Shown piece by piece: positions 15,589-38,134 of a stretch of 64,000 nt of DNA (position 1 is the first letter of the stretch; each line of letters opens with the position of its first letter). Position numbers and translations under genes: made by a program. Source of the stretch: Alphaproteobacteria bacterium. Its GTDB lineage: Bacteria; Pseudomonadota; Alphaproteobacteria; UBA7887. The DNA is taken from contig CBDCGL010000011.1 of assembly GCA_965216755.1 (NCBI GenBank), forward strand, positions 2,944,001-3,008,000. The letters are read 5' to 3'. The notes under the pieces are model-generated. The model was given only the letters and a program-made list of their open reading frames with translations, did not search any database and was not told the DNA's origin.

Positions 15589-15604
15589 CGAACGGGAGGC
15601 ACAA

Positions 15605-21872: not shown

Positions 21873-22340
21873 TCAATACTTCGCGTGATCCATGTCATAG
21901 CAACAATCGGTTTCGCCCCACGTTGGCGCGCATGATGGCGCCGACACCGTGCCGTCAGCACAATCAAGTTTGGCCGAACAGGTGACGTCGGCCACAAACC
22001 GCGTACCCGCCGCGATCCGCCGCTTCTCGGTCTCGACACCCAGTTCACCGACCGCGCCGTGGCCTTCTGCCGATCGATAGCACGCGAGAAAACGTTCATA
22101 AGCTGTCACGCCGACGGTCGTGTCAATGCGGCCGTCGCCAATGTCAGGCGTGCCAGCCGCGGCGCTCCATTCCTGCAGGACGCAACTGTCCGGCGGCGGC
22201 GCGCCCTGTGCGCTCTCAAGCGCGGCCGTTTCGACGACGTTTTGCCAACCGTCCGCTGGGCTGCAATTGTCTTGGGCCCAAACAGAACCCGTCAAAACAA
22301 ACATCAACGCGCCGGCAAGCGCGGGCATCACAAGCTGCAT
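21873..22340 (-). CDS. Secreted Cys-rich hypothetical protein (155 aa)
   Basis: GAGGAG ribosome-binding site, signal peptide ending VWA-Q, and 8 Cys including a C-terminal DCCY. Transcribed divergently from the first NosR-like gene. Confidence 0.7.
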   Translation of the reverse strand: MQLVMPALAGALMFVLTGSVWAQDNCSPADGWQNVVETAALESAQGAPPPDSCVLQEWSAAAGTPDIGDGRIDTTVGVTAYERFLACYRSAEGHGAVGELGVETEKRRIAAGTRFVADVTCSAKLDCADGTVSAPSCAPTWGETDCCYDMDHAKY

Positions 22341-22493
22341 GGGGATGGTCTCCTCGGCCGTGTGCAAAAACCGCTTTTTGTCTGTGGATAAGTCTAGCGC
22401 GCCCGGCATTCGCTGTCGAGGCGGTGTCGGTCGCTCTGGATCCGCGCTCGCGCATTCGATAACGTGGCGTCGGTGAGCGCGAGGGATTGCAGC

Positions 22494-24797
22494 ATGCAGA
22501 AGATTTTGGGCCGGTGCGCGGCCGCCATTGTGGTGGCCGCAACGCTGTTGGCGACAGGGTCGATTGTTTCCGTAGGCCAACTCCAAGCGCAGGACGCTGT
22601 TCCAACGCTTTTGGCGCCGAAGCCGACGGACTCGCAAGCGCCGGCGGCGGATACGGCGCCGACAGCCGGGCCCAATCTCGAAACCTATCTGGACGACGCC
22701 CTTTTGGCGATGGTGTACCCCGACGCCGATCGCGTCGGGCCGGTTGAAGGCGAACCGCCGGCCGCGGCGGTTTACAAGGGGGATGACCTTGTCGGCTATG
22801 TGTTCGAGCAATATGACGTGGTGCAAGGGGTCGGATATTCCAAACGCCCTTTTCACATGGTCATCGGCCTCGATTTGAGCGGCCATCTGACCGGCGCGCG
22901 ATTGGCCATGCATGTCGAGCCGATCGCCATTCTTGGTCGCACGGATGACGACTTCCACAAATATGTTGAGCAATTTGCTGGCATAGATATCCGCCGCGGT
23001 GTCAGCGTCATGCTGGATCTTTCCGGCTCGGCGCTGGAAGGCGACAAATTTGCCATGCGTGGTTCGGCGGGCGACGTCTCCAAGTTGACCCCTGTCGATG
23101 CCGTCTCACGCACGACCACCAGCTCGATCCTGTTCAGCGATTCAATCGTGCGCAGCGCGCGGATTATCGCGCGGACGCGCGGCATCGCGTTGGATGCGCG
23201 CGATTTGGGCCAACGGCTGGACATGGAAAGTTTCACTCCGATGCCATGGGTGGCGCTGATCGACGACGGCGCGCTCGCCCATTTGCGCCTGACGATCGCC
23301 GATGTTGCCGCGGCGTTCGCGGCCTTGCCCGACGACGCCAAGGCGCCGCGCAAGGTGCGCCTGTCGCCCGACGACGAGATCTTTGTCGATCTGTACGCGG
23401 CGGTCATTTCACCAGCCGGGATCGGGGTCAATTTGCTCGGCCGCACGTGGTACGACCAGTACATCTCCGGTCGCAATATCGAAGACGTGATTTTGTTCGT
23501 TGCCACCAAGGGTACGTATCGGTTCCACGGCGATGATCCGGCCGATGCCGCCCAGTTCTCGCGGTTGCGGCTCTTTCAAGGCGATACAGAAATCGCGTTC
23601 GGTCCGTCTTTGATGAAAACATTGCCATTTCATCACGCGACCGAAGCCCCGGACCTGGACGAAATCGGCTTGTTCTTTTTCTCCGGCGATGCGGCCCTCG
23701 ATCCAACACGTCCATGGCGTCTGGAGCTTGCCGTGGATGGCGACGGCGACACGCCGGCGCAAGCGATTTTCCCGGTCGACTACACATTGCCCGAGCGGTT
23801 CATATTGGCCCAACCAGAGGTCGAGTCACCAATCGACGCGGCGACCGATGCCATGGTGGCGGACGACGCGTCGATCGGCATCGATTGGCGCCAGTCTTGG
23901 ACCAATCAATCACGCAATATTGTGCTGTTGCTGGTGACGCTCGGTGTGCTCGTGGTGCTGTTGTCGCTGCAAGATCAGATCGCGCGCCGGCGCCGCCTGC
24001 ATCGTTGGCTGCGGATCGGGTTCCTGGCGTGGATTCTGATCTGGTTGGGCTGGTATGCGGGCGCGCAAGTGACCGTGATCAATCTTCTCAACATCGCGCA
24101 ATCAATCGTCTTTGATTTCGACTGGGCGTTTTTCATGGTCGAGCCGCTGATCTTCATCATCACGGCATTTGTCGCGCTGGGTTTGTTCTTTTGGGGGCGT
24201 GCGATCTTTTGTGGCTGGCTCTGTCCGTTTGGCGCGTTGCAGGAATTGCTGAACAACATTGCGACCGCGTTGCGCGTGCCGCAGTGGCGCATTCCAGAAG
24301 GGCTGCATCAACGCGCCATCGCGATCAAATATGTGGCGGTTCTGGCGTTGCTGGGGCTGACATTCTATTCGTTCGATCTGGCCATCATGGGCAGCAATAT
24401 CGAACCATTCAAGGCAGCCATCATCTTTCGTTTCGATGCACCGCTCGCCGCCGTCGCCTATGCCATGATTTTGTTGGTGTGTGGTTTGTTTGTTGAACGC
24501 GCCTATTGTCGCTTTCTTTGTCCGTTGGGTGCCGGTCTGGCGATCTTGGGTCGCGTGCGCATGTTCAATTGGCTCAAGCGTCGCCCTGAGTGCGGCAATC
24601 CGTGCCGCCGTTGTGAACGGGTTTGTCCGACCGGCGCCATTGGCCGCAGTGGCGCTATCGATATGAACGAATGTTTTTATTGCTTGGACTGTCAAGTCAC
24701 CTATTACGACAGTCATGAATGTCCGCCATTGGCGGCGCGCCGCAAGTCTGATCGCGCGCCACTCCAGGGGGCGCCGGTGCCGGCCGCGGCCGAATAG
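22494..24797 (+). CDS. NosR/NirI-like membrane protein (periplasmic FMN-binding-like domain, TM bundle, CxxxCP motifs, 4Fe-4S domain), copy 1
   Basis: HVEPI, DAVSRTT, GWYAGAQ, FCGWLCPFGALQEL, EPFK, YCRFLCPLG, CGNPCRRCERVCP and ECFYCLDCQ. Confidence 0.9.
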   Translation: MQKILGRCAAAIVVAATLLATGSIVSVGQLQAQDAVPTLLAPKPTDSQAPAADTAPTAGPNLETYLDDALLAMVYPDADRVGPVEGEPPAAAVYKGDDLVGYVFEQYDVVQGVGYSKRPFHMVIGLDLSGHLTGARLAMHVEPIAILGRTDDDFHKYVEQFAGIDIRRGVSVMLDLSGSALEGDKFAMRGSAGDVSKLTPVDAVSRTTTSSILFSDSIVRSARIIARTRGIALDARDLGQRLDMESFTPMPWVALIDDGALAHLRLTIADVAAAFAALPDDAKAPRKVRLSPDDEIFVDLYAAVISPAGIGVNLLGRTWYDQYISGRNIEDVILFVATKGTYRFHGDDPADAAQFSRLRLFQGDTEIAFGPSLMKTLPFHHATEAPDLDEIGLFFFSGDAALDPTRPWRLELAVDGDGDTPAQAIFPVDYTLPERFILAQPEVESPIDAATDAMVADDASIGIDWRQSWTNQSRNIVLLLVTLGVLVVLLSLQDQIARRRRLHRWLRIGFLAWILIWLGWYAGAQVTVINLLNIAQSIVFDFDWAFFMVEPLIFIITAFVALGLFFWGRAIFCGWLCPFGALQELLNNIATALRVPQWRIPEGLHQRAIAIKYVAVLALLGLTFYSFDLAIMGSNIEPFKAAIIFRFDAPLAAVAYAMILLVCGLFVERAYCRFLCPLGAGLAILGRVRMFNWLKRRPECGNPCRRCERVCPTGAIGRSGAIDMNECFYCLDCQVTYYDSHECPPLAARRKSDRAPLQGAPVPAAAE

Positions 24798-24878
24798 GGG
24801 CGACCGCCACAGCGCGAAAAAGTGCCGCCGGGCGGCAAGGTTCAGCCTTACCCGGCGGCGTATGCGTATATAGGGTTG

Positions 24879-25409
24879 CTACTCTTTGAAGACGTGAAGA
24901 TCGACCGGGCCGAAGACTTCACTCTCGCGACGCCCCGGCAGCTCCGGATATTCCGCCCAGGTGCGGCTTTGGAAATCGGCCGGCAGAGATTCCGCCACAT
25001 CCGAATACTGCACTTTGACCTTGAAGCGTATTTGGTTCATGGCCTTCGGATCATCCGTGCTGATGCAAGCCGGACCGTGACCGCCAAAATCGTCGGCGCC
25101 TTCCGTGACGCACCATTCCGGCTGCGGGCTGGCGTCGCTGTCCGGCTGCAGTTTCATAATCACGGACTGGCCTTCTTCAGGTCCGCCATTCACGTCCAAC
25201 ACGGCGTAGTAGCTATCTGCGACCCAACGCTCTTCCAAATCCTCGGGCACACCTTTGAGGAACAGAGTATAGCTTGGATATAGACCGCCGAAATACAGGC
25301 GCGCTTGTTCGGATGTGATCGAGACCACTTCGCCGGCCGTTGCCGGCAGCGCTGCCAAAGTCGTCCCGATGACGACAGCCGACGCACAAACCGTGCGCAC
25401 TATGTTCAT
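24879..25409 (-). CDS. Secreted acidic hypothetical protein (176 aa)
   Basis: GGGAGG ribosome-binding site, signal peptide ending ATA-G, and two Cys in the mature part. Lies downstream of the amidohydrolase. Confidence 0.75.
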   Translation of the reverse strand: MNIVRTVCASAVVIGTTLAALPATAGEVVSITSEQARLYFGGLYPSYTLFLKGVPEDLEERWVADSYYAVLDVNGGPEEGQSVIMKLQPDSDASPQPEWCVTEGADDFGGHGPACISTDDPKAMNQIRFKVKVQYSDVAESLPADFQSRTWAEYPELPGRRESEVFGPVDLHVFKE

Positions 25410-25464
25410 TTCACCCTCCCAGAAACCATTATTGGGATTTTCATTGCTCATACAACAATCGTCT

Positions 25465-25510
25465 ACAAAACAAAGTGGGGTCGGACGCAACGCGCCCGCC
25501 CCCACCTTTG
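25465..25510 (-). terminator. Intrinsic terminator-like hairpin after the amidohydrolase
   Basis: On the minus strand, GTGGGGGCGGGCGC-gtt-GCGTCCGACCCCAC followed by TTTGTTTT. Confidence 0.55.
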
Positions 25511-25556
25511 CATGGCACTAGCCCACGGGCATTGCCACGATCGTCACCGAACCGCG

Positions 25557-27068
25557 CTAGGCGGTACGGACGTAACCATAGCGCTTGTTGCTCGGGGCAC
25601 CGCCGGCCTCGCGATAATTGTGCGCGAGTTGTGCCAGCTTGTCCTCTGAGAAGTCCGGCAGATCAGGCATGTTGGTGGCGGAATCCATCGCCAAGCCGTA
25701 AATCCGCGCCGAGTTGAGGCCGAAGATCGCCTGTTTGGTCAGGCTGTTCGGGCCACCAAGCGACGGCAGGCCGTATTTCTCTTGCATGTCTTCCGGAACC
25801 TCGAGGCGACGCATGGCTTCGATCTGCCACTGCGGCGAGCCATACCAGACGGTGTCACTACCCCAGACGACATGATCGGCACCCATGCCGTTGACCAGCG
25901 TACCGATGAACGCAGCCGAGAAGCGCGGATGAGCGACCGCCGAATTGGCAAACGTCGATCCCAGCTCAGCGTAAACATTGGACACGCCGAATTCTTCGGG
26001 GATGCGCGCCAAGTCGCTGGCCCATTTGATGTCGCCGGTTTGTTCGAATTCCGCCCACGCTTGGTCCGGCAATTCGAGGAACGGCCGCAGCGCCGCGTGA
26101 TATTGGACGAAGTTCATTTCCGGCCAATCTTGCGCGGCCTTGCCGACGTCCCACACGGTCGCGTATTCCCACACGCCCTTGAACGATTGCTCGTAATCCG
26201 GCGGCAACAGACCTTTATGTGTACAGATCGTGTTGATGCCCGCCTTCAACGCCTTTTCGTAGAAAGGATACATCAGTTCTTCGTCGTCCAGCCGCCACGG
26301 GTATTTCGATGGCGAGAGCGGATCACCGATCGTGTAAGACTTCCACGAATCCGGCTTATATTGCTCGATGGCACGATCGACTTCATCCATCCAGCCATCT
26401 TGACCCGGCGTGATCACCGAATGACCGAGCATGCGGCGTGTGCCGGCGAAATCATTGACCATGTCGCGGGCGGCGACGATCTGATCATTGTACAACAGAT
26501 ACCAGGTCGGATCGTCGAACGGCGCGCCGCTCAACAACGCCATGGTGGTGTCACTGTTGTACCAAAGTTCACGAACATAGTTTTCGAACTTATAGCGGGT
26601 CAGTGACAGACCTTCTTCCTTGAGCTTTGGATTCCAATGCTCGGCGGCGAATTCACCAAGGCCGAGGATCGCCTCATGAGCAAAATCATCGCGCAGGAAG
26701 TGGGTCTGATCGTCAAAAATGAACTGCCCGGCCAACGCATTGGCCCGCTCCAACATCATTTCCGGGTCGCGCGCTTCGGCTTCTGAGACTTGGAACGTGT
26801 TGGTTCCGTAAATCTCTTTCATGGCCAAGAACGCCGTGGCCATACCGCAGCTGGTCTGCAGGAACTGTCGCCGCGACATGCCGAGATGTTTGGCATTCTC
26901 GTCGGCCAATTCTTTTATGCGCGCTTCGACTTGCTTTTGTTTCGGACTTTGCTTCGGCGGCAGATACTCACCGTTCGATACGATTTGTGTCGGCACCGGT
27001 GAATCGAACTCAAGGTTCTCCGCGCCGTCGACCAACCGCCGTTCTCGTTCGCTTAGCCAGTTAGACAC
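25557..27068 (-). CDS. Amidohydrolase (Amidohydro_2-like TIM barrel) with an internal twin-arginine-like motif
   Basis: FIFDDQTH, ICTHKG, QYHAA, NVYAELG and VWGSD; SRRQFL at about residue 65. GGAGG ribosome-binding site before GTG. Confidence 0.85.
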   Translation of the reverse strand: MSNWLSERERRLVDGAENLEFDSPVPTQIVSNGEYLPPKQSPKQKQVEARIKELADENAKHLGMSRRQFLQTSCGMATAFLAMKEIYGTNTFQVSEAEARDPEMMLERANALAGQFIFDDQTHFLRDDFAHEAILGLGEFAAEHWNPKLKEEGLSLTRYKFENYVRELWYNSDTTMALLSGAPFDDPTWYLLYNDQIVAARDMVNDFAGTRRMLGHSVITPGQDGWMDEVDRAIEQYKPDSWKSYTIGDPLSPSKYPWRLDDEELMYPFYEKALKAGINTICTHKGLLPPDYEQSFKGVWEYATVWDVGKAAQDWPEMNFVQYHAALRPFLELPDQAWAEFEQTGDIKWASDLARIPEEFGVSNVYAELGSTFANSAVAHPRFSAAFIGTLVNGMGADHVVWGSDTVWYGSPQWQIEAMRRLEVPEDMQEKYGLPSLGGPNSLTKQAIFGLNSARIYGLAMDSATNMPDLPDFSEDKLAQLAHNYREAGGAPSNKRYGYVRTA

Positions 27069-27343
27069 GTCTTCTCTCCTCCCAAAGTGACATCACAGAT
27101 CATTACTCTTGGACGCTATAAACGCGGCCCACATCGTGCCCTTTTGAAGGTAACGCCGTCAAAACAAAAAAACGGTGGCGCGATGACCGTTTAGCGCGCC
27201 CGGGACTTGCAGAATGGTTCAATATGGTCTGAAAGTGCGCTAGTGTCGCCCACCTGCGCCGGGCGCAGGAACGCATGGCCGTGGCATAGGTGTCTCAATC
27301 GACGCGGCGGTCTTAAGCGGCGACATGAACGTGGGGCGAGGGT

Positions 27344-29566
27344 GTGACGAGGCAAGCGCGTACGGCGCGGCCCGCAAGGTGGGGCGCGCTTTTTGTTGCG
27401 ATGTGCGTGGCCGTGGCCGGACTGGTCATGCCGACCAGTCCCACGGCTTCGGCGCAAGAAGCTGAAGAATCCTATCCGGTGCCGCTGGCCACCTGGACCA
27501 ATCCGACCACCGGCGCCGCATGGCTCAACTTGGATCTGGTCCAAGCACTGTTTCCCGAAGCCGACGATGTGGGCACGATCGAAAACGACCCGCGCGTGGC
27601 GCCGGTATACGCCAACCGCATTCTGCAAGGTTATACATTTATCACCCGCGACATCACGGAATCGCTGGGTTTTTCATCCTTACCTTTTACCATCGCGGTC
27701 GGTTTGCGGCTTGATGGCACCCTGTCGGGCGCCAGGGTCAAAGAGCATCAAGAGCCGATTATCGATCTGTACATGATCGAAAACACGATCCCCGCCTTTG
27801 CCGACCAATATACAGGCATCGATATCCGCACGCCGGTGCGTGTGCGCCTGACCAAAACACAAGACGCCGGCACGGTCGACGGCATCACGTCGGCGACCGT
27901 CAGTGCGGTTTTGTTCAACGAAGCGATTTTGCGCGCGGCGCGGCTGGTGGCATTGGCCAAGGGTATACGTCTGCATGATCAACCTGTGATGGATATCGTC
28001 GGCTATCGCCCAGCCGGATTCGCGTCGCTGGTTGCCGATGGCACTATCGGGCGCATGCGAATCAGCAAGGATGCGGCGCGCACGGCCGGCGTTGCCGCGC
28101 CCGACTTGTCGCATGATGGCATGGGCAACGATCTCTACATCTATGCCCACGAACGCGACAGCGGCGCCAAGTCGCAACCCACTTTTCCTGATGACTTGGT
28201 GATCGATCTTTATGCGGGCCCCGTCATGGTGCCGACCATCGGTCGGAATCTGCTTGGCGACAAATGGTACGATTTGTTCGTCAGTGGGCGCGATCCAAAC
28301 GCGCTCATGCTGGGGATCATGACCATAGGCCCCTATTCGATCGATGGCGAAAAGCATCTTTCCAGTGGTCCGTTCAGTCGCCTACAGCTTCGCCAAGACG
28401 GCAAGGAATGGCCGCTAACCAAGGACAATTATCGTTATTTGGGCTTCCTGCACGGCACGGACAAACCCCGCTTCGCCGAAATCGGGTTGTTCTGGGTGCC
28501 CGTTGAAAGTGGTATAGATCCGGTCCGCCCGTGGACGTTGCGCCTGTTGGTTGAAAGCGCGGTCGATGGCGCATCGGCGCCATTTGAGCTCACCTATGCG
28601 TTGGGCGACGAGTTCATATTGCAGCCGACCGGGATCGACAATGTCGTGTCAGCAGACAATACACCATTGTGGATGTCGGCGTGGCATTCACAAACCACCA
28701 ACATCGCGATATTGGCGGCGCTTCTGATCATCTTAACGATCATCTTGGTCAACATGGATGCGTTGGCGAAAAAGCCGCGTTGGCTGCAGGCGACACGTTT
28801 GTCCTTCTTGGCGGTCGTCCTTGTCTGGATGGGCTGGTATGCGGGCGCTCAACTCACCATCATCAATGTATTGACGTGGGTGCAGTCGCTGGTCACGGGG
28901 ACCGGTTTGACCGTGTTCTTGTCCGACCCCTTAATCGTTGTATTGGTCGGCTTCGTCCTGGTGACGTTCTTCATTTGGGGGCGCGGTATCTTTTGCGGTT
29001 GGCTGTGCCCATTCGGCGCTTTGCAGGAACTGCTCGGCAAGGCCGCCCAGGCGCTTGGGGTGCGCCAAATCAGTTTGAGCAACCGCGCGCATCAATGGCT
29101 TTGGCCGGTCAAATACGTCGTCTTGCTCGGGTTGGTCGGTTTGTCATTCTATTCCTTGACGATCGCCAACACAGCCGCGGAAGTTGAACCGTTTAAGACC
29201 GCCATCTCACTTCGCTTCGCGCGCGACTGGCCATATGTGGTCTATGCGCTGACCTTGCTGGCGATCGGGCTGACCATCGAACGCGCTTTTTGCCGGTTTT
29301 TGTGTCCGCTGGGCGCTGCGATGGCGATCGGTGGTCGGCTGCGCATACCGCGTTTGCTGAAACGACGCGAGGCGTGTGGTTCACCCTGCCAACTGTGTGC
29401 GCGGCGCTGTCCGATCAACGCCATAAAGCCGGATGGCCAAATCAAAATGGACGAGTGCTTTTATTGCCTGGATTGCCAAGTGCTGTATCACGACCAGCAT
29501 GTTTGCCCGCCATTGGTGCAGTCGGCCAGACGTTCGACACGCAAAACCGTGTCCCAGGCCGCTTGA
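27344..29566 (+). CDS. NosR/NirI-like membrane protein, copy 2
   Basis: HQEPI, DGITSATV, GWYAGAQL, FCGWLCPFGALQEL, EVEPFKT, FCRFLCPLG, CGSPCQLCARRCP and ECFYCLDCQ. Confidence 0.9.
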   Translation: MTRQARTARPARWGALFVAMCVAVAGLVMPTSPTASAQEAEESYPVPLATWTNPTTGAAWLNLDLVQALFPEADDVGTIENDPRVAPVYANRILQGYTFITRDITESLGFSSLPFTIAVGLRLDGTLSGARVKEHQEPIIDLYMIENTIPAFADQYTGIDIRTPVRVRLTKTQDAGTVDGITSATVSAVLFNEAILRAARLVALAKGIRLHDQPVMDIVGYRPAGFASLVADGTIGRMRISKDAARTAGVAAPDLSHDGMGNDLYIYAHERDSGAKSQPTFPDDLVIDLYAGPVMVPTIGRNLLGDKWYDLFVSGRDPNALMLGIMTIGPYSIDGEKHLSSGPFSRLQLRQDGKEWPLTKDNYRYLGFLHGTDKPRFAEIGLFWVPVESGIDPVRPWTLRLLVESAVDGASAPFELTYALGDEFILQPTGIDNVVSADNTPLWMSAWHSQTTNIAILAALLIILTIILVNMDALAKKPRWLQATRLSFLAVVLVWMGWYAGAQLTIINVLTWVQSLVTGTGLTVFLSDPLIVVLVGFVLVTFFIWGRGIFCGWLCPFGALQELLGKAAQALGVRQISLSNRAHQWLWPVKYVVLLGLVGLSFYSLTIANTAAEVEPFKTAISLRFARDWPYVVYALTLLAIGLTIERAFCRFLCPLGAAMAIGGRLRIPRLLKRREACGSPCQLCARRCPINAIKPDGQIKMDECFYCLDCQVLYHDQHVCPPLVQSARRSTRKTVSQAA

Positions 29567-29670
29567 TCGCGGGGTTCTCATGCTTGCCAGCCATGGTGGC
29601 GCGGTTTCGTCGATTCGGATATTAAGGTGACGAAAGCGGTGAGACCGGTCTAAGGGGACAACCGAAGATC

Positions 29671-30441
29671 ATGAACGGACCCGACCATTCGTTGATCTTT
29701 AAGTGGATCCTGGGCAATTCCTTTGCGGGGTTCGGACTTTTTATTGCGTGGCAGCAAGGCTGGCTGTCGCTGGTGGTTGCGAGTGACGCGAGCTATCTAA
29801 GCGTCGTCATGACCGCGATTTTCCTCATTTTTTGGGCCCTGAGCACGTATAAGGCGATCAGCCTGAACCGCGAGGTCAATCGGTTTCGCGCGGGCGCACC
29901 ACACGGGGTCGCCGCCGATTACATGTCCAAAATCCGGCGCGTTGCGGCGCAATCACATGGCGCCAAAGTCGACCAGGCGACGTTCGCCAACAATCTTCAG
30001 GCGCATTTGCTGCTGGCCATACAGCCGGTCAATTTTACCGCGAACTTGCTTATCCTGCTTGGTCTCATCGGCACTGTGATTGGTTTTGTTATCGCCGTTG
30101 GTGGCTTGGGCGACGCGTTGACCGGCGGCGATGGTCCCGAACGCGTGCGCGCCGTCCTCGCCCAAATCGTCAATGGCATGGGCGTGGCGTTGTTCACAAC
30201 CCTGGTCGGCAGCATCCTCGGCGGAATCTGGCTTCAGTTGCACTATCAACTTCTGTTTCGCACCAGCGCCCGTTTGGCACTGGAGATCGTTGAACATGCG
30301 GAGCTCGCAATTCTGCGCGACATGTCGTCGCCAGCCCCGGACACGTTGGCCGAGGCGCGCGACAATTGGTCGGTATCCAGCGCCAAAGCGGCCGGCCAGG
30401 TCGCGGGCGGCGAGCGCATTGCGCGAACTATGGTCCGCTGA
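29671..30441 (+). CDS. MotA/TolQ/ExbB proton-channel family protein
   Basis: The TM motifs LLGLIGTVIG and GMGVALFTTLVG match the ExbB/TolQ channel helices. Four predicted TMs. Confidence 0.88.
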   Translation: MNGPDHSLIFKWILGNSFAGFGLFIAWQQGWLSLVVASDASYLSVVMTAIFLIFWALSTYKAISLNREVNRFRAGAPHGVAADYMSKIRRVAAQSHGAKVDQATFANNLQAHLLLAIQPVNFTANLLILLGLIGTVIGFVIAVGGLGDALTGGDGPERVRAVLAQIVNGMGVALFTTLVGSILGGIWLQLHYQLLFRTSARLALEIVEHAELAILRDMSSPAPDTLAEARDNWSVSSAKAAGQVAGGERIARTMVR

Positions 30442-30451
30442 CTGATCCGCC

Positions 30452-31048
30452 ATGACACCCGTGCTGAATGCCCTCAAGGGCGATACCGAATCAGCCGGCG
30501 TCGCATTTCGCGACGTCTTGTTTCTGATGGTGTTGAGCCTGGTCATCGTCATTTTCCTCATCTCTCTGTTGATCAACCCGCAAGAGGAGGAAGAGGCACC
30601 GCTGCGCACCGATATCGTGATCGAGGCGATGTGGCCGAGTGGCGAGGCGCATGATATCGACCTTTGGGCAATGGGGCCCGACGAGGTTCCGGTCGGATGG
30701 GGACTCAGCTCTGCCGGGCCGTCGCTCAATCTGGAACGCGATGACCGGGGCATCATTAACGACGCCACGACACTGAATTACGAGATCATCACCGTGCGGG
30801 ACAAGACGCCTGGCGAGTATCTTATCAACCTTCACCTTTACAATGAGTTTGAAAGTGTCTTGCCGGTGCCCGTGACGGTTAAAGTCACCGGTCGCGGCGG
30901 CCTCGGCGAGATCTTTTCCGGTGAAGTCAGAATCAATGAACGCAAACAAGAGGTGACGGTTGTCCGGTTTCGGCTCGACGAAGACGGCAATCTGGTCGAA
31001 GACAGCATCAACGACATGTTCAAATGTATTCTCTGTCGAAGGGGATGA
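30452..31048 (+). CDS. Single-TM MotB/ExbD-like partner with a YfaP/DUF2135-like periplasmic domain
   Basis: AFRDVLF places an Asp at the start of the TM helix. The periplasmic part reads W..G..HDIDLW..GP...LERDDRG...E...PGEYLINLHLY. Confidence 0.7.
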   Translation: MTPVLNALKGDTESAGVAFRDVLFLMVLSLVIVIFLISLLINPQEEEEAPLRTDIVIEAMWPSGEAHDIDLWAMGPDEVPVGWGLSSAGPSLNLERDDRGIINDATTLNYEIITVRDKTPGEYLINLHLYNEFESVLPVPVTVKVTGRGGLGEIFSGEVRINERKQEVTVVRFRLDEDGNLVEDSINDMFKCILCRRG

Positions 31049-31076
31049 CCGGTGACGGTGCGGGCGAGCTGATGTT

Positions 31077-31502
31077 ATGGACGCGACCGTCATTCTGATC
31101 CCGGCACTGTGCGCCGCGGCGGTTACATTTTTACTTGCGATGCTATTTATCGAGTGGCGTCGCCACTGGTTCGGATATTGTTTGCTGTTTGGGCTTGCGA
31201 CGACGGCGCTTGGGCTACCCCTCTACGCCATGCGCGATGTGTTGGGCTTGCCGGATCCGGCCCCGGCCGGTGGGACTTACGAGCTGGTTGGATGGAAGAA
31301 CGACGAGTACGCCGATCAGTCATATCTCTTTGTCGCGCGCGAGGGCGAAGTCGTCCCGCGACATTTCGCGGTTGCATTTGATATGGAAAGCGCTTTGCAG
31401 TTGCATCGCTTGGCGGAAAGCGTGGACAGGCTTGATCGCGTGCGAATCTCCATTGAAAGAGGTCAAAATGGTGACACGATTTTCGTCCCGTCGCGCAAAT
31501 AG
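31077..31502 (+). CDS. Small 2-TM hypothetical membrane protein
   Basis: Two hydrophobic helices, then LGLPDPAP.GG.YELV...YLFV...PRHFAV. Operon-like spacing. Confidence 0.7.
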   Translation: MDATVILIPALCAAAVTFLLAMLFIEWRRHWFGYCLLFGLATTALGLPLYAMRDVLGLPDPAPAGGTYELVGWKNDEYADQSYLFVAREGEVVPRHFAVAFDMESALQLHRLAESVDRLDRVRISIERGQNGDTIFVPSRK

Positions 31503-31589
31503 GCGACCTGGCTTGCGTGAGAACGAGCCTATGACCGTTTTGGTGACGACGCGTGATGGGCGCCGACAGCATCATGCGGTGCGACGACC

Positions 31590-32045
31590 GTGAGTCATCT
31601 CATCCTTTACGGCCTGTTTGCCGCGCTGGTGTGTTTCTTGGTCGTTGCCGTTATGACCCGATCACGGCGGCTGCGGACACTCGCGGTGATGGCCGGCGCG
31701 GTCGCACTTTGGCTGCCGTATTTTGCTTTGACCCATGCGCTCGGCAATCCCAATCCGTTCCCGCCAACCGGGAACTTTCAGCTGTTGGCGTCACGTATAG
31801 ATCAAGCCAATGGCGATTGGTACATCCTGATTGACGGATATCGGCAAGCGGGCCCACCGCGCTCGTTTGTCGTGCCACTCCCCGATGTGCATGAGCGCGA
31901 TCTGCCTCGGGGGTCGCCATACGATCCGGCCGACGTTTTCTTGTCGCGCGGTGCGGGCGGCGCGATGGAATTGTTAGAGGTCGACTATTATCCGCCCGAC
32001 CCGCCGAAGGGCACGCGCAATTACGGTCAAATCGGCGCGGAGTAG
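31590..32045 (+). CDS. Small 2-TM hypothetical membrane protein (paralog of 31077-31502)
   Basis: Two hydrophobic helices, then LGNPNPFP.TG.FQLL...YILI...PRSFVV. Confidence 0.7.
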   Translation: MSHLILYGLFAALVCFLVVAVMTRSRRLRTLAVMAGAVALWLPYFALTHALGNPNPFPPTGNFQLLASRIDQANGDWYILIDGYRQAGPPRSFVVPLPDVHERDLPRGSPYDPADVFLSRGAGGAMELLEVDYYPPDPPKGTRNYGQIGAE

Positions 32046-32145
32046 GCGTAAGGGCGTAGGCCGTTCGTGTCCCACCGACGCGAGTCACGACCGCTGCGGT
32101 CCACGGCGAGACGGGCGGCACGCAGGTGACCCGCCGGGAAAATGG

Positions 32146-32174
32146 TTGACCGTGTCTGAGCGACAATTGAAAAT
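32146..32174 (+). promoter_or_regulatory. Possible sigma-70 promoter of the PQQ dehydrogenase
   Basis: TTGACC-N17-GAAAAT in the intergenic region. Confidence 0.3.
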
Positions 32175-32300
32175 CTTTGCGGCTGAATTCACATGAACGT
32201 GCTGCGACTTGCAGTGTCGCATCCAGTGGATGGTTGCTATCAGCCGCAAACTGAGCCAGGAGACGTATGCCAATCTAAGACAACTGGGAGGAAAAAAGGG

Positions 32301-34001
32301 ATGAAGTGGTGGTCCCCGCGATGTTTCATCGCACCAATGGCGCTAATCGTGCCGATTGTATCTGTTGGGATTTCGGCAGAGCTTCAGGCCGGGCCGGTAC
32401 GAGATACGGATTTGCTTGTGCCCGCCGGAGAAGAATGGCTGCATGTAAATGGCAATGCCGAAGGCACGCGCTATAGCACGCTGACGCAAATAAACGCAGG
32501 CAATGTCGGCGAACTGAAAATGGCTTGGCTGTTCAGCACGGGCGGCGATACGTTCCACCAAGCCACGCCAGTGACCCATGACGGCATTGTGTACTTCCCA
32601 CAGTCCTACTCGGTGTTTGCCATCGATGGCCGCACCGGCCGCCGTATCTGGAAGTTCCACGAAGATCCACCGGAGGATTTGGGCGGCGACAATCCCGATC
32701 TGTTCCGTGGCACGCATCGCGGCGTGGCGTTGTACGGCGACAATGTCTACTACCTGACCCAAGACAATAAAATTATCGCGCTTGATCAGAAGACCGGCGA
32801 CGTGGTCATGGAAACCGACCGCCTGCGCGATTATGCCAAGGCCTACGATATGGCCGAGGACGCCAACGGCTATTGGTCGACGGTGGCGCCCATGGCGATT
32901 CCGGGTAAGATCATCGTGCCCATGAATGCCACCGATACGGGTGGGCTGCCCGGCTTTGTGATCGGCGTCGATCCTGATTCCGGTGAGACTCTTTGGGAAT
33001 CCAACATGATTCCGAAAGAGGGCGAGCCGGGCTATGACTCGTGGCCAGGCAACAGCGCCGACTATGGCGGTGGCGGCCCCTGGCTGACCGGATCGTTCGA
33101 CGGGGAAACCAACACCTATTTCACCGGGACGGCCAATGCCATGCCGTGGAATCCCTATGGGCGCGGCGATGGTATGATGGATAATGTTGGCGCGGCAAGT
33201 ATCGTCGCGGTCAACACCGACACGGGCGAAGTCCGATGGCGTTATGTGGTAGTGCCCGGCGATCCGTTCGATTACGACGTGCCGGGTGTGCCAATGATCA
33301 TCACGGTCGGCGGCAGCAAGACGATCGTGCAGCCGAACAAGACCGGCTACATGCATTATCTGGACGCCGCCACGGGTGAATTCCTTAGGGTCGCACGGAT
33401 TTCGGACAAGATCACTTGGGCCGAAGGCTATGGCAAGGATGGGCGGCCGATCAATCAAGTCACGCTGCCGAAAGAAGGCGATCCCCAGATCGAAATCTGG
33501 CCAAGCCTGCTTGGCGCCGTCAATCTCTATCCGAGCGCCTATAATCCGAATACCGGCATGATCTATATGCCAACCCGCCACAAGTCGATGCTGTATGGAT
33601 TCGAAAAGGTCCAGTATCGCGCCAAGGCGGCTAATTTTGGTGCAGTGTTCGAATTCCCGGAAGGCGGCAACGAAATCAATCTTGCCTATGATGTCGAGTC
33701 GGGAACCGAAGTTTGGCGTGACCACAAAGCGACAGACGGCTATGCGGGCGGTATGCTGACCACCGCCGGCAATCTCGTTTTCTATGGCAGCCAAGGCGGT
33801 ATTTTCCACGCTGTCGAGGCCACCACGGGCGAGGTCCTTTACACCTTCAACATGGGCACAACCTTCAAGGCGGGGCCGATGACGTACATGTTGGACGGCA
33901 CCCAGTATGTGGTTGGTTTGGCAGGCCACGTGCCGGGTCTTGGCAATGAAGATCATCCGCTTGAGCCGAATGGCGGCTATTTGTACGCGTTCACGCGTTA
34001 A
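32301..34001 (+). CDS. Periplasmic PQQ-dependent dehydrogenase (8-bladed beta-propeller, divergent alcohol dehydrogenase-like)
   Basis: Signal peptide; RYSTLTQINAGNV, repeated A.D..TG...W Trp-docking motifs, GGGGPW, GTANAMPWN, DPFDYD, GGMLTTAGNLVF and PMTYMLDGTQYV. Confidence 0.92.
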   Translation: MKWWSPRCFIAPMALIVPIVSVGISAELQAGPVRDTDLLVPAGEEWLHVNGNAEGTRYSTLTQINAGNVGELKMAWLFSTGGDTFHQATPVTHDGIVYFPQSYSVFAIDGRTGRRIWKFHEDPPEDLGGDNPDLFRGTHRGVALYGDNVYYLTQDNKIIALDQKTGDVVMETDRLRDYAKAYDMAEDANGYWSTVAPMAIPGKIIVPMNATDTGGLPGFVIGVDPDSGETLWESNMIPKEGEPGYDSWPGNSADYGGGGPWLTGSFDGETNTYFTGTANAMPWNPYGRGDGMMDNVGAASIVAVNTDTGEVRWRYVVVPGDPFDYDVPGVPMIITVGGSKTIVQPNKTGYMHYLDAATGEFLRVARISDKITWAEGYGKDGRPINQVTLPKEGDPQIEIWPSLLGAVNLYPSAYNPNTGMIYMPTRHKSMLYGFEKVQYRAKAANFGAVFEFPEGGNEINLAYDVESGTEVWRDHKATDGYAGGMLTTAGNLVFYGSQGGIFHAVEATTGEVLYTFNMGTTFKAGPMTYMLDGTQYVVGLAGHVPGLGNEDHPLEPNGGYLYAFTR

Positions 34002-34016
34002 ATCGGATGGCATGCG

Positions 34017-34055
34017 GAAAAGGGCACGGGTGCGTTTGCGCACGTGCCCTTTTTC
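34017..34055 (+). terminator. Hairpin/terminator after the PQQ dehydrogenase
   Basis: AAAAGGGCACG...CGTGCCCTTTTT stem followed by a U-tract. Confidence 0.65.
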
Positions 34056-34116
34056 TCGCCATCGCCAGCCATCGGGTAACCGACCTAAGGCCGATCAAAC
34101 GAGGATTGATGGAACG

Positions 34117-34545
34117 ATGACGCAAAAGTCTCGCCGAACCGTCCGGCTTGTTATTTTGGGATTCTGTGTTGTGGCCATGGGCGCGTGGTCGATCGCCGGA
34201 CGCGTGCACGCCTCACCATCTGAGGTTGAATCGTCAAATCCCCTCAGTGGTGACGAAGACGCCATTGAGACGGGGGCACAGCTGTTTGCGGAAAACTGCA
34301 CCCTCTGTCACGGGCGCAAGGCGAACGGCAAAACCGGTCGATGGGCCTCCGCCGATCTGACCAAGTACAGAAAAGGCTATACCCGGTTTCTCAAAATCGT
34401 TCAAAAGGGTGTCGAGCCAAAGCGCGGATCAAACAACCAAATGCCGCCGTGGGAAGAGTTTCTGGATGAGACACAAATCGGAATGATTGGTGCTTATTTG
34501 GAGACTTTGGCCGCGCGCGGCGCAAAGTGGGTTGATCCGAAATAA
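34117..34545 (+). CDS. Class I c-type cytochrome, probable electron acceptor of the PQQ enzyme
   Basis: Signal peptide; NPLSGDEDAIETGAQLFAENCTLCH heme motif and distal Met in NQMPPW. Confidence 0.9.
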   Translation: MTQKSRRTVRLVILGFCVVAMGAWSIAGRVHASPSEVESSNPLSGDEDAIETGAQLFAENCTLCHGRKANGKTGRWASADLTKYRKGYTRFLKIVQKGVEPKRGSNNQMPPWEEFLDETQIGMIGAYLETLAARGAKWVDPK

Positions 34546-34598
34546 AAGTGAGCCGCCGTGTTGCGGACTCGACCGACGCAGTCAAGAGGATCAGAACA

Positions 34599-35009
34599 TT
34601 GGCCACGATCGATGAACGCCTTGGGCGACTGGAAAGACGGGTCAGGTTTTTTCAAGCCACAACGTGTATTTTGTTTCTTTTGGTGACCACGCCGATCGTG
34701 CTCGGCGCAACAACACAGATACCAGAGGTGATTCAAGCGCGCGCCTTCGAAGTGGTTGACGCAAGCGGCAGACCGGTCGTGCAACTGGAGTCAAAGGACG
34801 AAGGCGGCCGCGTTTGGGTGTGGAACAAACGCGGCAAGGTGACGCTTTCGCTGTCCAACGACGAAAACCAAGATGGCGTGTTTCGACTCTATGCGCACAA
34901 GGGCAATCGCGGTTTGCCCTATGTCGTGATTTCCGCTGACGCCGCAGGCGGACGGATCACGATCGAAAGCGACGGTGACGCCCAACGGGTCATCGAACCC
35001 GGCCCTTGA
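34599..35009 (+). CDS. Hypothetical single-TM beta-rich protein
   Basis: AAGAGGA before TTG; short coiled coil, TM helix, then beta-strand repeats (FEVVDASG, LYAHKG). Confidence 0.6.
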   Translation: MATIDERLGRLERRVRFFQATTCILFLLVTTPIVLGATTQIPEVIQARAFEVVDASGRPVVQLESKDEGGRVWVWNKRGKVTLSLSNDENQDGVFRLYAHKGNRGLPYVVISADAAGGRITIESDGDAQRVIEPGP

Positions 35010-35055: not shown

Positions 35056-36372
35056 TCATACAAGGACCAAAGCCAATTCTGGCACCAAGATAATCAATAC
35101 CACGACAAGAAGCATGATCACGGCAAACGGAAACGCACCCGCAAAAATATCGAACAAACTGATTTCGTCTGTGGAAAGCGTGCTCTTGATCACGTAGGCG
35201 GCGATGCCCAAAGGCGGGGTCAACAAACCGATTTCAACGCCGATCACTGTGATCACGCCAAACCAAACCAGATCAACGTCAAACGGGGCCAGCATCGGCA
35301 TGAACAACGGCACCACGATCAGAATGATCGACGTGGAATCCAGCACGGTCCCAAGCACCAACAATATGACGACGTAAACGGCGAGCAATCCGTAAAGGCC
35401 GAATTCCGCCGTGGCCACGGCAGTGCCGAGCTGTCCGCTGATCCCTGACAACCCCAGCATGCGGCTGTACATGCTTGCGGCGATAACCAAAAAACAAATC
35501 GACGCGGTGATGTGTCCGGTTTCAATCAGCACATGCCAAAACGCACGCAGATTCAACTTGCCCTTGGCCAACGCGATAACCAGTGCGCCGAGCGCGCCGG
35601 CGGCGCCGGCCTCAGTTGGCGTGAACACGCCACCGTAAATACCGCCGATCACCAGTGCCACCAACAGCCCGATGGGCGCTAGCTTGCCGGCGATTTCTGG
35701 GCCGCTTAAATGGCCGGCATCCGGCGCACCGGCGGATGCCAGCGCGCCGCCGACATAGCCGGGCGTGAATCGCGCCATGGCGATGATCGCCAAACAAAAC
35801 GCCGCCGAAAGAACGATGCCCGGAACGATGGCCGCCAAGAACATATCGCCGACCGATTGCTCGGTCAGCACGGCGTAAATGATCAACAGCAGACTTGGCG
35901 GAATGAGCATGCCGAGGATGGAGCTGCCGGCCACGACGCCGACGGCAAATCGTGGTCGGTAGCCGAACCGCAACATCTCGGGCACTGCCACGCGGGTGAA
36001 GATTGCCGCCGACGCGATGCTGATGCCGGTGATCGCCGCGAACACCGCGTTGGCCGCCACCGTTGCGATTCCCAAGCCGGCGCGCACACGACGAAACGCC
36101 TGATTGGCGACCGCGAACGCATCGCTACCCATGTCGGCGGCGCCAACCAGCAGCCCCATCAAAACAAACAACGGGATGACGCCAAAGATATAGCTAGAAA
36201 TGCTATCCGACGCGGCCAGCGTCAAAAGCTTGACCGCGACGGTCAAGTTGCCCTTGATTGCCCAAACGCCCAGAAACGAAACCAGGGCCAAGACCACAGG
36301 CACATACATGCCGAGGTAAATCAGCGCTAAGATGAGCGCGATGGACGCGACCCCGATTTCAATCCCGGTCAC
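35056..36372 (-). CDS. dctM: TRAP transporter large permease
   Basis: Motifs IPLFVLMG, LGMLIPPS, FTPTEA and GLLTPPLG. Confidence 0.93.
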   Translation of the reverse strand: MTGIEIGVASIALILALIYLGMYVPVVLALVSFLGVWAIKGNLTVAVKLLTLAASDSISSYIFGVIPLFVLMGLLVGAADMGSDAFAVANQAFRRVRAGLGIATVAANAVFAAITGISIASAAIFTRVAVPEMLRFGYRPRFAVGVVAGSSILGMLIPPSLLLIIYAVLTEQSVGDMFLAAIVPGIVLSAAFCLAIIAMARFTPGYVGGALASAGAPDAGHLSGPEIAGKLAPIGLLVALVIGGIYGGVFTPTEAGAAGALGALVIALAKGKLNLRAFWHVLIETGHITASICFLVIAASMYSRMLGLSGISGQLGTAVATAEFGLYGLLAVYVVILLVLGTVLDSTSIILIVVPLFMPMLAPFDVDLVWFGVITVIGVEIGLLTPPLGIAAYVIKSTLSTDEISLFDIFAGAFPFAVIMLLVVVLIILVPELALVLV

Positions 36373-36947
36373 GGGCGTGCGTCATCCCTTGGCCGATCCA
36401 CGCGCGGCGCGCCGTGTGCCAGGTCACGATACAAGAGCAGTGCAAACTGAATCGCCAAGGCCGCGCAGCCGACAACAATGATCAATCGCACGGGCCAAAC
36501 CGGGGCAACGAATATGCCCTGATTGCCGACATAGTGGCCTTTTGTCCAAGCTTGGGTAAAACGCGGCACGCTGCCGTACAGGATAATCAATGACAAAAAC
36601 ACGCCGGTGGCGTTGAACACCGCCGAAAGACCGCGCGCGATTGTCGGCGCGCGATCGCCAATGCGGCTGAATGCTGCATCGGAGCGTGTTAGGCGACCGA
36701 CCCGCAGGGTGTGCGGCAACTGCAGAAAAACGATTCCAACAATCGATAGCTCGACATTTTCCTTTACCCCTGGCACCGGACTGGACAAAAGAAATCGGCC
36801 AAAAATATCGAGGTTGATCAAAACCATCAGGCCAAAGATGCAGGCCGTGCCAACCGCATTGAGCGCGGCGACCACGCCGGCAAACGACCACGGTCGCCAT
36901 GGCGCGGGCGGCGCGGATTGGCTGCCGGTAGATGGCGCGGGGGGCAT
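36369..36947 (-). CDS. dctQ: TRAP transporter small permease
   Basis: Four TMs; DIFGRF...PVPGVKE. Lies between dctP and dctM. Confidence 0.88.
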   Translation of the reverse strand: MPPAPSTGSQSAPPAPWRPWSFAGVVAALNAVGTACIFGLMVLINLDIFGRFLLSSPVPGVKENVELSIVGIVFLQLPHTLRVGRLTRSDAAFSRIGDRAPTIARGLSAVFNATGVFLSLIILYGSVPRFTQAWTKGHYVGNQGIFVAPVWPVRLIIVVGCAALAIQFALLLYRDLAHGAPRVDRPRDDARP

Positions 36948-36962
36948 CGCGATACCGCCGCG

Positions 36963-38057: not shown

Positions 38058-38134
38058 GGAATCCTTCCCTACGCGCGCGGCCGCCCGCCCGCGGTCAATG
38101 GCCACTGCATTTGCAAGGGGCCCGAACCGTATCT

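Follow-up and report, generated by a model that had tools for sequence, protein, structure and literature searches.

A NosR-bracketed amidohydrolase operon and a stator-type cassette adjoining a PQQ dehydrogenase lie side by side in an alphaproteobacterial genome

We analyzed a 64,000-nucleotide stretch of DNA (hereafter the window) from a 5.0-Mb, 99.8% complete alphaproteobacterial genome (GenBank assembly GCA_965216755.1, contig CBDCGL010000011.1), focusing on a region of 13 kb that encodes two NosR-like membrane proteins, an exported amidohydrolase-fold enzyme, a MotA/ExbB-type cassette, a pyrroloquinoline quinone (PQQ) dehydrogenase and a cytochrome c. A first-pass annotation had read these 13 kb as a single redox system of the periplasm, with an ion-driven motor and twin NosR-like conduits recruited to a quinoprotein or another periplasmic metalloenzyme. 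All of the genes it listed were recovered in place from the open reading frame (ORF) listing and from Pfam and NCBIfam scans, but comparison with relatives splits the region into two independently conserved units. Unit A (22464-29566) consists of NosR-like 1, a small secreted protein (Sec208), a twin-arginine amidohydrolase-fold enzyme and NosR-like 2, and unit B (29671-34545) consists of a four-gene cassette (A, B, C1 and C2) together with a divergent PQQ dehydrogenase and a cytochrome c. The two units are in contact in this genome only, and the region is a side-by-side placement of both that is specific to this genome; we hold this two-unit anatomy with high confidence. The genes of the two units are as follows.

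22464..24797, plus strand: NosR-like 1, with a Fer4_5 domain (NF046105, 574.4 bits); unit A
24879..25505, minus strand: Sec208, small secreted protein of 208 aa, second gene of the amidohydrolase operon
25557..27068, minus strand: Amidohydro_2 (PF04909) enzyme, 29.6 bits against a threshold of 26.4, with an RRQFLQ motif; TIM-barrel of the metal-dependent type
27344..29566, plus strand: NosR-like 2, with a Fer4_5 domain (weak FMN_bind match, 18.7 bits; NF046105, 609.8 bits); unit A by conservation
29671..30441, plus strand: cassette A, MotA/ExbB/TolQ-family channel protein of 256 aa (PF01618, 31.2 bits against 22.9)
30452..31048, plus strand: cassette B, Asp-containing transmembrane (TM) protein with a single N-in TM helix and a periplasmic, predicted TerD-like beta-sandwich
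31077..31502, plus strand: cassette C1, with two TM helices and a small periplasmic beta-beta-beta-alpha-beta-beta domain
31590..32045, plus strand: cassette C2, paralogue of C1
32301..34001, plus strand: divergent PQQ-dehydrogenase-family propeller with a signal peptide (PF01011, 202.8 bits)
34117..34545, plus strand: class I cytochrome c with a CTLCH motif and a signal peptide (PF13442, 39.7 bits)

Likely starts were corrected from the translations for the PQQ enzyme (32301, within an ORF of 32193-34001), for the cytochrome c (34117, within an ORF of 33907-34545) and for a Cys-rich protein gene upstream of unit A (~22343). The true start of NosR-like 1 is probably later than that of its ORF, which overlaps the upstream gene. 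Pfam negatives in the window were taken at E<=0.01, a level at which no family was found for Sec208, B, C1 and C2, nor for two outlying proteins described below (the Cys-rich protein and the last TM protein of the region). Promoter and terminator scans returned sites no more numerous than in shuffled sequence.

Conservation of the amidohydrolase operon and its NosR-like neighbors

Comparison with related genomes, whose loci we designate by L numbers, defined the extent of unit A. Sec208 lies directly downstream of the amidohydrolase gene in 12/12 loci of the same family (amidohydrolase identity at least 76%) and in 2/3 such loci of another family, and 8 of the 12 family loci carry a NosR-like gene within their 1.5-kb flanks. 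Orthologues of NosR-like 1 (57-80% identity) converge on the operon in L137, L139, L140, L143, L172 and L173, the last of these with the orthologue 1.6 kb beyond the secreted protein, and a gene of the NosR-like 2 clade is transcribed away from the amidohydrolase gene in L131 (the closest relative), L137, L145-L147 and L172. The full twin NosR-like bracket is thus found also in a third genus (L172), and the bracket recurs in three genera of the family. Synteny in relatives therefore shows the twin NosR-like arrangement to be real and conserved, but with the amidohydrolase operon, not the motor, as its partner.

The amidohydrolase belongs to a family of more than 5000 relatives, which are named only "predicted TIM-barrel fold metal-dependent hydrolase" or "amidohydrolase", and a PDB sequence search at E<=1 returned no solved relative. 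Alignment of relatives revealed the invariant residues R66, R67, D119, H123, H284, H324 and D405, of which D119, H123, H284, H324 and D405 are putative metal ligands judging from their pattern. The invariant RR motif is preceded by a conserved extension of 60 residues (WLSERE...PTQIVSNGEYLPP...), which is unusually long for a twin-arginine translocation signal and may be a chaperone-binding or membrane-anchoring segment. In other genera the enzyme is 84-89% identical where NosR-like 2 is only 66-71% identical.

For the NosR-like proteins, we compared domain matches, motifs and phylogenetic position. In NosR-like 1, an N-terminal periplasmic domain is joined to a membrane domain that carries two CX3CP motifs, and two ferredoxin-type Cys clusters lie in the cytoplasm; the two CX3CP motifs and both clusters are intact in all 12 full-length NosR-like paralogues of the genome, including both window proteins. 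PF12801 matches both window proteins, and FMN_bind scores 18.7 bits, below its cut-off of 22, in NosR-like 2, with no match in NosR-like 1. The flavinylation motif, SGAT in most paralogues, reads TSAT in NosR-like 2 and SRTT in NosR-like 1, and each variant is conserved in the respective orthologues. Both proteins score below the 1000-bit cut-off of NF046105 (the NosR equivalog of NCBIfam), a cut-off that is strict for this lineage, since even the nosZ-linked copy scores only 835.6 bits. In a quick maximum-likelihood tree, with support from the Shimodaira-Hasegawa-like approximate likelihood ratio test (SH-aLRT) only, the NosR-like 1 and NosR-like 2 clades are sisters and are together sister to the pair formed by the nosZ-linked and nirS-linked proteins.

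The first-pass annotation had remarked that nosZ, nirS, apbE and tonB are missing from the window, and this holds, each being present elsewhere in the genome. The genome contains nosZ, nirS, one apbE and pqqC. nosZ (1122.8 bits) lies 1.28 Mb from the window, immediately preceded by a NosR-like gene and followed by nosD, nosY and nosL, while nirS stands elsewhere with a divergently transcribed NirI-like gene; both window NosR-like genes lack a nosZ/nosDFYL context, nosZ having another NosR-like gene beside it. Altogether the genome holds 12 full-length NosR-like genes (two of them in the window) and 12 PQQ-dehydrogenase genes. The annotation had named, as observations that would speak against its single redox system, components unlinked in other genomes, or NosR-like proteins that group with true NosR and NirI in a genome that also carries nosZ or nirS. 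Not all components are linked in other genomes, and nosZ and nirS are indeed present elsewhere in this one, but in the quick tree the window's NosR-like proteins fall outside the clade of NosR and NirI.

The expansion of NosR-like genes is family-wide, with at least one strong match in 20/22 relatives and three or four in most, and the neighborhoods of the paralogues in this genome are varied. A hemerythrin gene lies directly downstream of the paralogue at L018, a PQQ dehydrogenase and a family-3 solute-binding protein neighbor that at L016, and the paralogue at L013 is divergent from a second, paralogous Amidohydro_2 gene. At L020, a betaine-type ATP-binding cassette transporter lies upstream and apbE downstream; this single apbE of the genome lies 730 kb from the window, beside a NosR-like gene other than those of the window. 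Transposase, integrase or conjugation genes adjoin several of the paralogues (L014, L017, L018 and L019) as well as the nos cluster.

The general idea that NosR/NapH-like conduits have clients besides NosZ and NirS, among them PQQ alcohol oxidases, is already published (PMC8238504). With the NapH-like flavinylated systems described there (NosR, NirI and PceC), the window proteins share the PF12801 membrane Fe-S protein, the N-terminal extracytosolic domain and a modular use with different periplasmic enzymes. They differ in that their partner here is an amidohydrolase-fold enzyme with a small secreted protein, which the accessible part of the paper's text does not name, and in their variant flavinylation motifs and their 12 copies per genome. 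In the literature that we searched (mostly outside subscription journals, and without supplementary tables), no NosR-like protein linked to an amidohydrolase is described.

By analogy, unit A would be an exported amidohydrolase-fold metalloenzyme with a small secreted partner, bracketed by two flavo-iron-sulfur NosR-like membrane proteins that may carry electrons to or from the enzyme, or may govern its expression, in the manner of NosR toward NosZ and of NirI toward NirS. Several observations weigh against such a role. Both window proteins have a non-canonical flavinylation motif; amidohydrolases are not, to our knowledge, redox enzymes; and in another family the amidohydrolase (79% identity) and Sec208 occur with no NosR-like gene within 8-9 kb. 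An alternative is that the NosR-like proteins are mainly membrane-bound regulators of transcription of the neighboring operons and not conduits. NosR and NirI are needed for transcription, a role that was the first described for both, and the NCBIfam family carries the name "transcriptional regulator NosR". NosR-like 2 and the amidohydrolase are also transcribed divergently, an orientation that the NirI-like gene and nirS of this genome share, and the conserved departures from SGAT in both window clades fit the same idea. The two CX3CP motifs and two Cys clusters, intact in all 12 paralogues, speak the other way, and we consider a mainly regulatory function unlikely, though compatible with our best explanation of the region.

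A stator-type cassette and its linkage to a quinoprotein

The four cassette genes encode an arrangement reminiscent of known stator-type motors, which drive flagella, gliding, TonB-dependent uptake, Tol-Pal and Zorya defence. Likeness to MotAB, ExbB-ExbD-TonB and TolQ-TolR-TolA lies in the MotA_ExbB domain of A, in the TM Asp of B, and in a gene order A-B-C like that of tolQRA and exbBD-tonB. Differences lie in A, which has four predicted TM helices but a short cytoplasmic loop; in the periplasmic domain of B, which is predicted to be TerD-like and not ExbD/TolR-like or OmpA-like; in C, where two TM helices are combined with a small beta-rich domain and Pfam gave neither a TonB_C nor a TolA match; and in the cassette as a whole, which lacks an evident rotor, receptor or Pal partner. 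A recent survey (PMC12505986) reports, in its accessible part, many non-flagellar stator homologues without assigned function.

Subunit A carries the invariant motifs LxxLGLxGTVxGF and ALxTTLxG in the alignment of relatives, whose A genes also match PF01618. Searched against the PDB, its profile gave weak matches only, to MotA (8gqy, E 0.0013) and to ZorA-type chains. The ZorA resemblance, seen also in NCBIfam (E 0.0027) and PADLOC (E 3e-6), raises the prospect of a Zorya-like anti-phage system, which we regard as barely credible: the match to ZorA models is confined to residues 124-190 of A and involves the 56-residue channel core alone, A, with its 256 aa, is shorter than the ZorA models (461-1063 positions), PADLOC matches neither B nor C, and no ZorC-like or ZorD-like genes were seen.

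For subunit B, D21 at the cytoplasmic end of the TM helix is nearly invariant (at least 90% in 23 sequences), and the periplasmic domain bears an invariant acidic cluster in the same alignment (D68, D70, R96, D97, D98, D104, N109 and E111). An AlphaFold 2 model (mean predicted local distance difference test score, pLDDT, 82.1) places a TM helix at residues 13-41, followed by a beta-sandwich. The top fold matches of this model were four TerD-family chains, with Foldseek E values of 2.5e-5 to 9.3e-4, and VIA-align gave Z scores of 11.0, 9.9, 9.6 and 8.2 over residues 49-198, compared with 6.0 for the next other fold; 135-141 residues were aligned, the best alignment covering 141 residues of the predicted model at a root-mean-square deviation of 4.7. 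Identity to the TerD chains is 6-14%, and none of the 23 B members matches Pfam TerD at E<=10. PF02472 of the ExbD/TolR type and OmpA-like domains are likewise absent among the matches of these 23 members at E<=10, and the B profile found no significant match among PDB sequences. The periplasmic domain of B is thus predicted, from the model, to have the TerD fold. TerD proteins are soluble and cytoplasmic, whereas the B domain lacks detectable sequence similarity to them, is periplasmic and is tethered to a stator-type TM helix; what the two share is the predicted fold, with a conserved acidic cluster on the side of B. TerD binds Ca2+ (title of entry 2kxt; accessible part of PMC8123226), and the modeled B domain is probably metal-binding of the Ca2+ type. 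An assignment of B to YfaP/DUF2135, a lead from one homologue, was rejected, as DUF2135 was weak in 5/23 members (best E 0.048) and the fold search gave TerD.

C1 and C2 were recognized by the first-pass annotation as paralogues, which alignment bears out, and each is a homologue of C, the only gene of this type in a generic three-gene cassette. This third gene, encoding a two-TM protein of ~172 aa, follows A-B in ten distant loci that were extracted and aligned, and in a second cassette of this genome; its product has two TM helices, an LG-P-P turn, a small domain and a Pro-rich tail, and is alignable with C1 and C2 (C1 against generic C, blastp E 4e-5 in a small database). The C1 model (pLDDT 81.3) shows a helical hairpin with a small beta-rich domain. 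In fold searches VIA aligned the hairpin (residues 1-57) only, and Foldseek with the whole-protein model returned no match at E<=0.001, the best being small OB-like barrels at 0.09. Neither C1 nor C2 matches TonB_C or TolA in Pfam.

The cassette is a specialised member of a widespread A-B-C family for which we found no description in the literature searched. A search of 185,579 species genomes yielded 372 relatives of B, 2384 cluster representatives match it at E<=1e-3, and it is present in 41/301 sampled genomes of the class; in the sources these copies are named only "hypothetical protein". A and B are adjacent in 76/80 loci from public species genomes. We separated these 80 loci into an orthologous group of 18, in which B is at least 56% identical, and 62 distant loci. 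Order A-B-C1-C2 is found in 11/18 orthologous public loci and was kept in all six orthologous loci fetched from the family (L037-L041 and L043), where B orthologues at 61-67% identity occur in 13/22 other genomes. A copper-chaperone gene of the PCu(A)C type lies directly after C2 in L037 (11479-11943) and L039 (8248-8745), loci at which the PQQ gene is not adjacent to the cassette.

Using these loci, we found a recurrent association of the cassette with a PQQ dehydrogenase. A PQQ orthologue (47-56% identity) and the cytochrome c adjoin the cassette in 11 of the 18 orthologous public loci; of the seven others, five are contig fragments that end within ~0.8 kb or are too short, and two (L061 and L063) are negative. 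The linked genes occur in a co-directional order (the window, L048 and L049), in a divergent order (L050, L051, L053-L057, L062 and L064) and in a convergent order in L174, from a genome of a different family, and the DNA of linked loci ranges in GC content from 0.30 to 0.64. Among the 23 genomes of the family, 12 have both orthologues, 8 have neither and 3, all incomplete, are discordant; neither the cassette nor the PQQ orthologue was found in 18 genomes of other families in the same sample, and in the other family one genome has both while its congener has neither.

Other clades of the cassette also meet other PQQ genes. In L045 a PQQ gene lies immediately next to a paralogous cassette that has two B genes, an arrangement repeated by coordinates in four genomes of one genus, and in L114 and L120 a PQQ gene lies 2 kb upstream of the cassette. 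The second cassette of this genome, of the generic A-B-C type, is 4.1 kb from a PQQ gene and a cytochrome c (p = 0.035 for a random segment).

The PQQ enzyme itself is divergent. It scores 372.7 bits against TIGR03075 (methanol/ethanol family), below the cut-off of 480, and its closest solved relative is the quinoprotein ethanol dehydrogenase 6zcv (269 bits), which we take to be PedH. We tabulated motifs for the 12 genome paralogues and 10 orthologues of the window enzyme. The vicinal Cys-Cys is absent from the window enzyme and all 10 orthologues, which have an FFTGKHRG-like sequence, and present in 7/11 other genome paralogues; NATDTGG stands where the paralogues have GAEYG, the context of the metal-binding Glu; WPSLLGxVN replaces CPxxGGKxW; and the Asn of GTANA is retained. 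The D-x-D motif reads FDYD in the window enzyme and [WY]DYD in all 10 orthologues, aligning with WDFD of 6zcv. The extra Asp of this motif is essential for lanthanide enzymes, according to the accessible part of a preprint (bioRxiv 10.1101/2020.02.25.964783). All 12 PQQ paralogues of the genome carry the lanthanide-type D-x-D, yet the genome has one TonB-dependent receptor.

The cytochrome c gene follows the PQQ gene in 10/11 public loci holding the latter, and its product is presumed to be the electron acceptor of the PQQ enzyme; it scores 37.6 bits against TIGR04494 (PedF), below the cut-off of 122. Compared with PedH, ExaF and XoxF and their cytochromes PedF and XoxG, the pair shares the eight-bladed PQQ propeller, the D-x-D, the metal-site Asn and the class I cytochrome c that follows. 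The window enzyme departs from them in having no vicinal Cys-Cys, NATDTGG for GAEYG and WPSLLGxVN for CPxxGGKxW, and in being linked to a motor cassette instead of to known partner genes.

Several linked loci showed further features. The PQQ-cytochrome c operon in L054, L055, L056, L064 and L174 (also L048, L050 and L051) carries extra genes absent from this genome, encoding a secreted protein of ~173 aa, a membrane-anchored TPR protein of ~350 aa and, in some, a His-rich helical protein of 210-260 aa. The cassette set, with its PQQ gene and cytochrome c, also lies on contigs with a GC content of 0.30-0.32 (L057 and L062), one of them labeled Pelagibacterales, and other copies of the set are found in metagenome-assembled genomes labeled SAR324 and Tectimicrobiota. 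Either horizontal transfer of the set or mis-binning accounts for this distribution. The second cassette of this genome (contig 4212000-4230000) is in a cluster with a SoxYZ fusion, a metallo-beta-lactamase-fold protein, Sel1-repeat proteins, a LolA-like protein, an MMPL transporter and Peripla_BP_6.

With the NosR-like genes and the cassette both placed among relatives, the single-system view of the first-pass annotation can be weighed, namely that thirteen genes form one system in which twin NosR-like conduits and the motor jointly serve the quinoprotein. NosR-like 2, the cassette, the PQQ enzyme and the cytochrome c lie on one strand with gaps of 10-255 bp in the ORF listing, and a NosR-like gene of a clade different from both window proteins stands beside the cassette-PQQ locus, convergent to it, in L050, L051 and L052. 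Another paralogue of this genome is directly upstream of a different PQQ gene (L016), and PMC8238504 reports gene clusters that join NapH-like proteins to ExaA (172 genomes) and to nirS (133 genomes) and are of independent origin. NosR-like genes therefore show a loose but recurrent affinity for quinoproteins, which was already known. Against a joint system, these are the only 3 of the 18 orthologous cassette loci with a NosR-like gene, and the 105-bp spacing of NosR-like 2 upstream of the cassette occurs in this genome only. None of the five loci fetched for its orthologues (66-71% identity; L128-L132) has a cassette nearby, and the orthologues in four genomes of a single genus lack both the cassette and the amidohydrolase within 9 kb. 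Both window NosR-like clades are conserved around the amidohydrolase operon, and with 12 paralogues some chance adjacency is expected, the probability of a NosR-like gene within 5 kb being 0.033 per random segment. We find one joint system of thirteen genes quite improbable.

Flanking genes

Beyond the two units, the region and its surroundings contain the following genes.

21873..22343, minus strand: Cys-rich secreted protein, ~156 aa from an internal Met with 8 Cys, divergent from NosR-like 1
34548..35009, plus strand: membrane-anchored TM protein of 153 aa, of doubtful membership
35056-38105, minus strand: TRAP transporter genes DctM, DctQ and DctP, convergent to the cluster (Pfam/NCBIfam)
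38135-39154, minus strand: alpha/beta hydrolase, with no signal peptide; cytoplasmic

The Cys-rich protein had no tblastn match in L137, L172 and L173, beside NosR-like 1 orthologues, and was not found beside orthologous genes of any other genome searched, so its membership of any unit is doubtful. The 153-aa TM protein has no paralogue in the genome, and tblastn did not find it at any of the loci fetched. The TRAP transporter and hydrolase genes recur, at 70-81% identity, directly after C2 in L058 (the closest relative) only, and are probably neighbors of the cluster and not part of it. The idea that they take up and process the product of the dehydrogenase was dropped, as the synteny is confined to that one close relative and the hydrolase is cytoplasmic.

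Adenylate/guanylate cyclase-TPR paralogues flank the whole region, at 17886-19883 on the plus strand and 39296-41194 on the minus strand, and weak matches to both occur near the loci of relatives. Upstream lies the gene for a twin-arginine molybdopterin-binding oxidoreductase subunit with MoCoBD_1 and MoCoBD_2 (15569-17839, plus strand).

Candidate roles of the cassette

Our preferred explanation of the region, about which we are evenly divided between acceptance and doubt, is that two units have been juxtaposed, the cassette being an ion-driven envelope machine that serves the quinoprotein and the NosR-like pair serving the amidohydrolase enzyme. For the function of the cassette considered separately, our confidence is low to moderate. 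By analogy with the solved MotAB, ExbBD and TolQR complexes, A and B would form a stator unit driven by ion-motive force that performs mechanical work in the periplasm through B and C, and C, which occupies the gene position of TolA or TonB, would be the transducing partner, duplicated in the window cassette. We take the quinoprotein, or something it needs, as the client because the cassette has co-evolved with the D-x-D PQQ dehydrogenase and its cytochrome c. Linkage, the Ca-type fold predicted for B and the metal-dependent active site of the enzyme together suggest that the cassette matures or supplies the quinoprotein. Its most likely role would be energy-coupled maturation or metal (Ca or lanthanide) handling of the dehydrogenase, rather than uptake across the outer membrane. 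Of the first-pass annotation's proposal, the tie of the motor-like module to the dehydrogenase and cytochrome c is supported, but not the inclusion of the NosR-like pair, which is tied to the amidohydrolase operon instead. In keeping with its statement that it knew of no characterised system with this combination, the literature searched describes no MotA/ExbB-like cassette linked to a PQQ dehydrogenase.

A precedent for metal loading of a PQQ dehydrogenase is given by MxaRSACKL, energy-dependent, membrane-associated accessory proteins for Ca2+ insertion into methanol dehydrogenase. These comprise a MoxR ATPase and vWA proteins, are unrelated to the cassette families, and are ATP-driven, not ion-driven. 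Complex prediction of the periplasmic parts of B, C1 and C2 with the mature PQQ enzyme scored 0.00, a result that carries no weight either way.

A number of findings weigh against a quinoprotein client. In 12 distant cassettes annotated with Pfam, the neighbors are unrelated housekeeping genes, and only 2/62 distant loci have any PQQ gene within 10 kb, so specificity for quinoproteins cannot extend to the whole cassette family. One genus includes six genomes that carry both the cassette and the PQQ orthologue, but at a distance of 0.2-1.6 Mb or on separate contigs. Of the three discordant family genomes, two (92% and 70% complete) carry just the cassette and the third (88% complete) just the PQQ enzyme. 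At the level of the protein, the likeness of B to TerD is structural only, and the acidic cluster of B is invariant in generic cassettes too and hence not lanthanide-specific.

Much of this evidence also favors a different account, in which the cassette is a general envelope machine, Tol-like or stress-related, and the PQQ linkage reflects shared regulation or joint horizontal transfer and no client relation. Generic cassettes stand alone as operons among housekeeping genes in Azospirillum and Meinhardsimonia xiamenensis (loci L070, L071, L094 and L098) and in others, the distant loci rarely hold a PQQ gene, a whole genus keeps the cassette and PQQ gene unlinked, and one genome has the cassette without the PQQ orthologue. 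We nevertheless judge this account somewhat unlikely, as the linkage survives three gene orders and the full range of GC contents given above, the patterns of presence and absence agree both inside the family and in a second one, and other cassette clades repeatedly associate with other PQQ paralogues.

A further possibility is that the cassette, in the way of TonB with ExbBD, powers uptake across the outer membrane, whether of the enzyme's substrate, of PQQ or of a lanthanide chelate. The order A-B-C mirrors exbB-exbD-tonB, generic C ends in a Pro-rich tail, a TonB-dependent receptor is found near the cassette at L064, and TonB-dependent uptake of PQQ and lanthanides is known elsewhere (bioRxiv 10.1101/2022.06.07.495086 and PMC9301485, in the parts accessible). 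The window holds no gene for a TonB-dependent receptor, the only one in the genome is flanked by its own ExbB and TonB, and no receptor gene was seen at other annotated cassette loci. B and C match no ExbD, TonB_C or TolA model, and the presence of pqqC means that PQQ import is not needed. Outer-membrane uptake is, on these grounds, very unlikely.

Within the preferred explanation of an ion-driven machine serving the quinoprotein, a more specific form can be put forward, which we consider decidedly speculative and on balance improbable: the TerD-like B would capture Ca2+ or lanthanide, and rotation or pulling by the A-B-C machine would load or exchange the metal (or PQQ) in quinoproteins. If true, this would provide a soluble-enzyme client for a motor of the MotAB/ExbBD type, and a form of lanthanide handling that is independent of TonB-dependent receptors.

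For unit A, the conserved placement of NosR-like proteins on either side of an exported enzyme of hydrolase fold would add to the clients of NosR/NapH-like conduits a fold that is not normally redox-active, and the 12-fold expansion of NosR-like genes in one genome makes it a good place to study conduit specificity. For unit B, the concrete candidate client found here makes testable a so far unnamed motor family of several thousand sequence clusters, with a TerD-like B and a two-TM third subunit. If the client relation holds, the cassette would be the first motor of this type to be linked with a soluble enzyme in the periplasm, and would bear on metal supply in marine bacteria that have many lanthanide-type quinoproteins and almost no TonB-dependent receptors.

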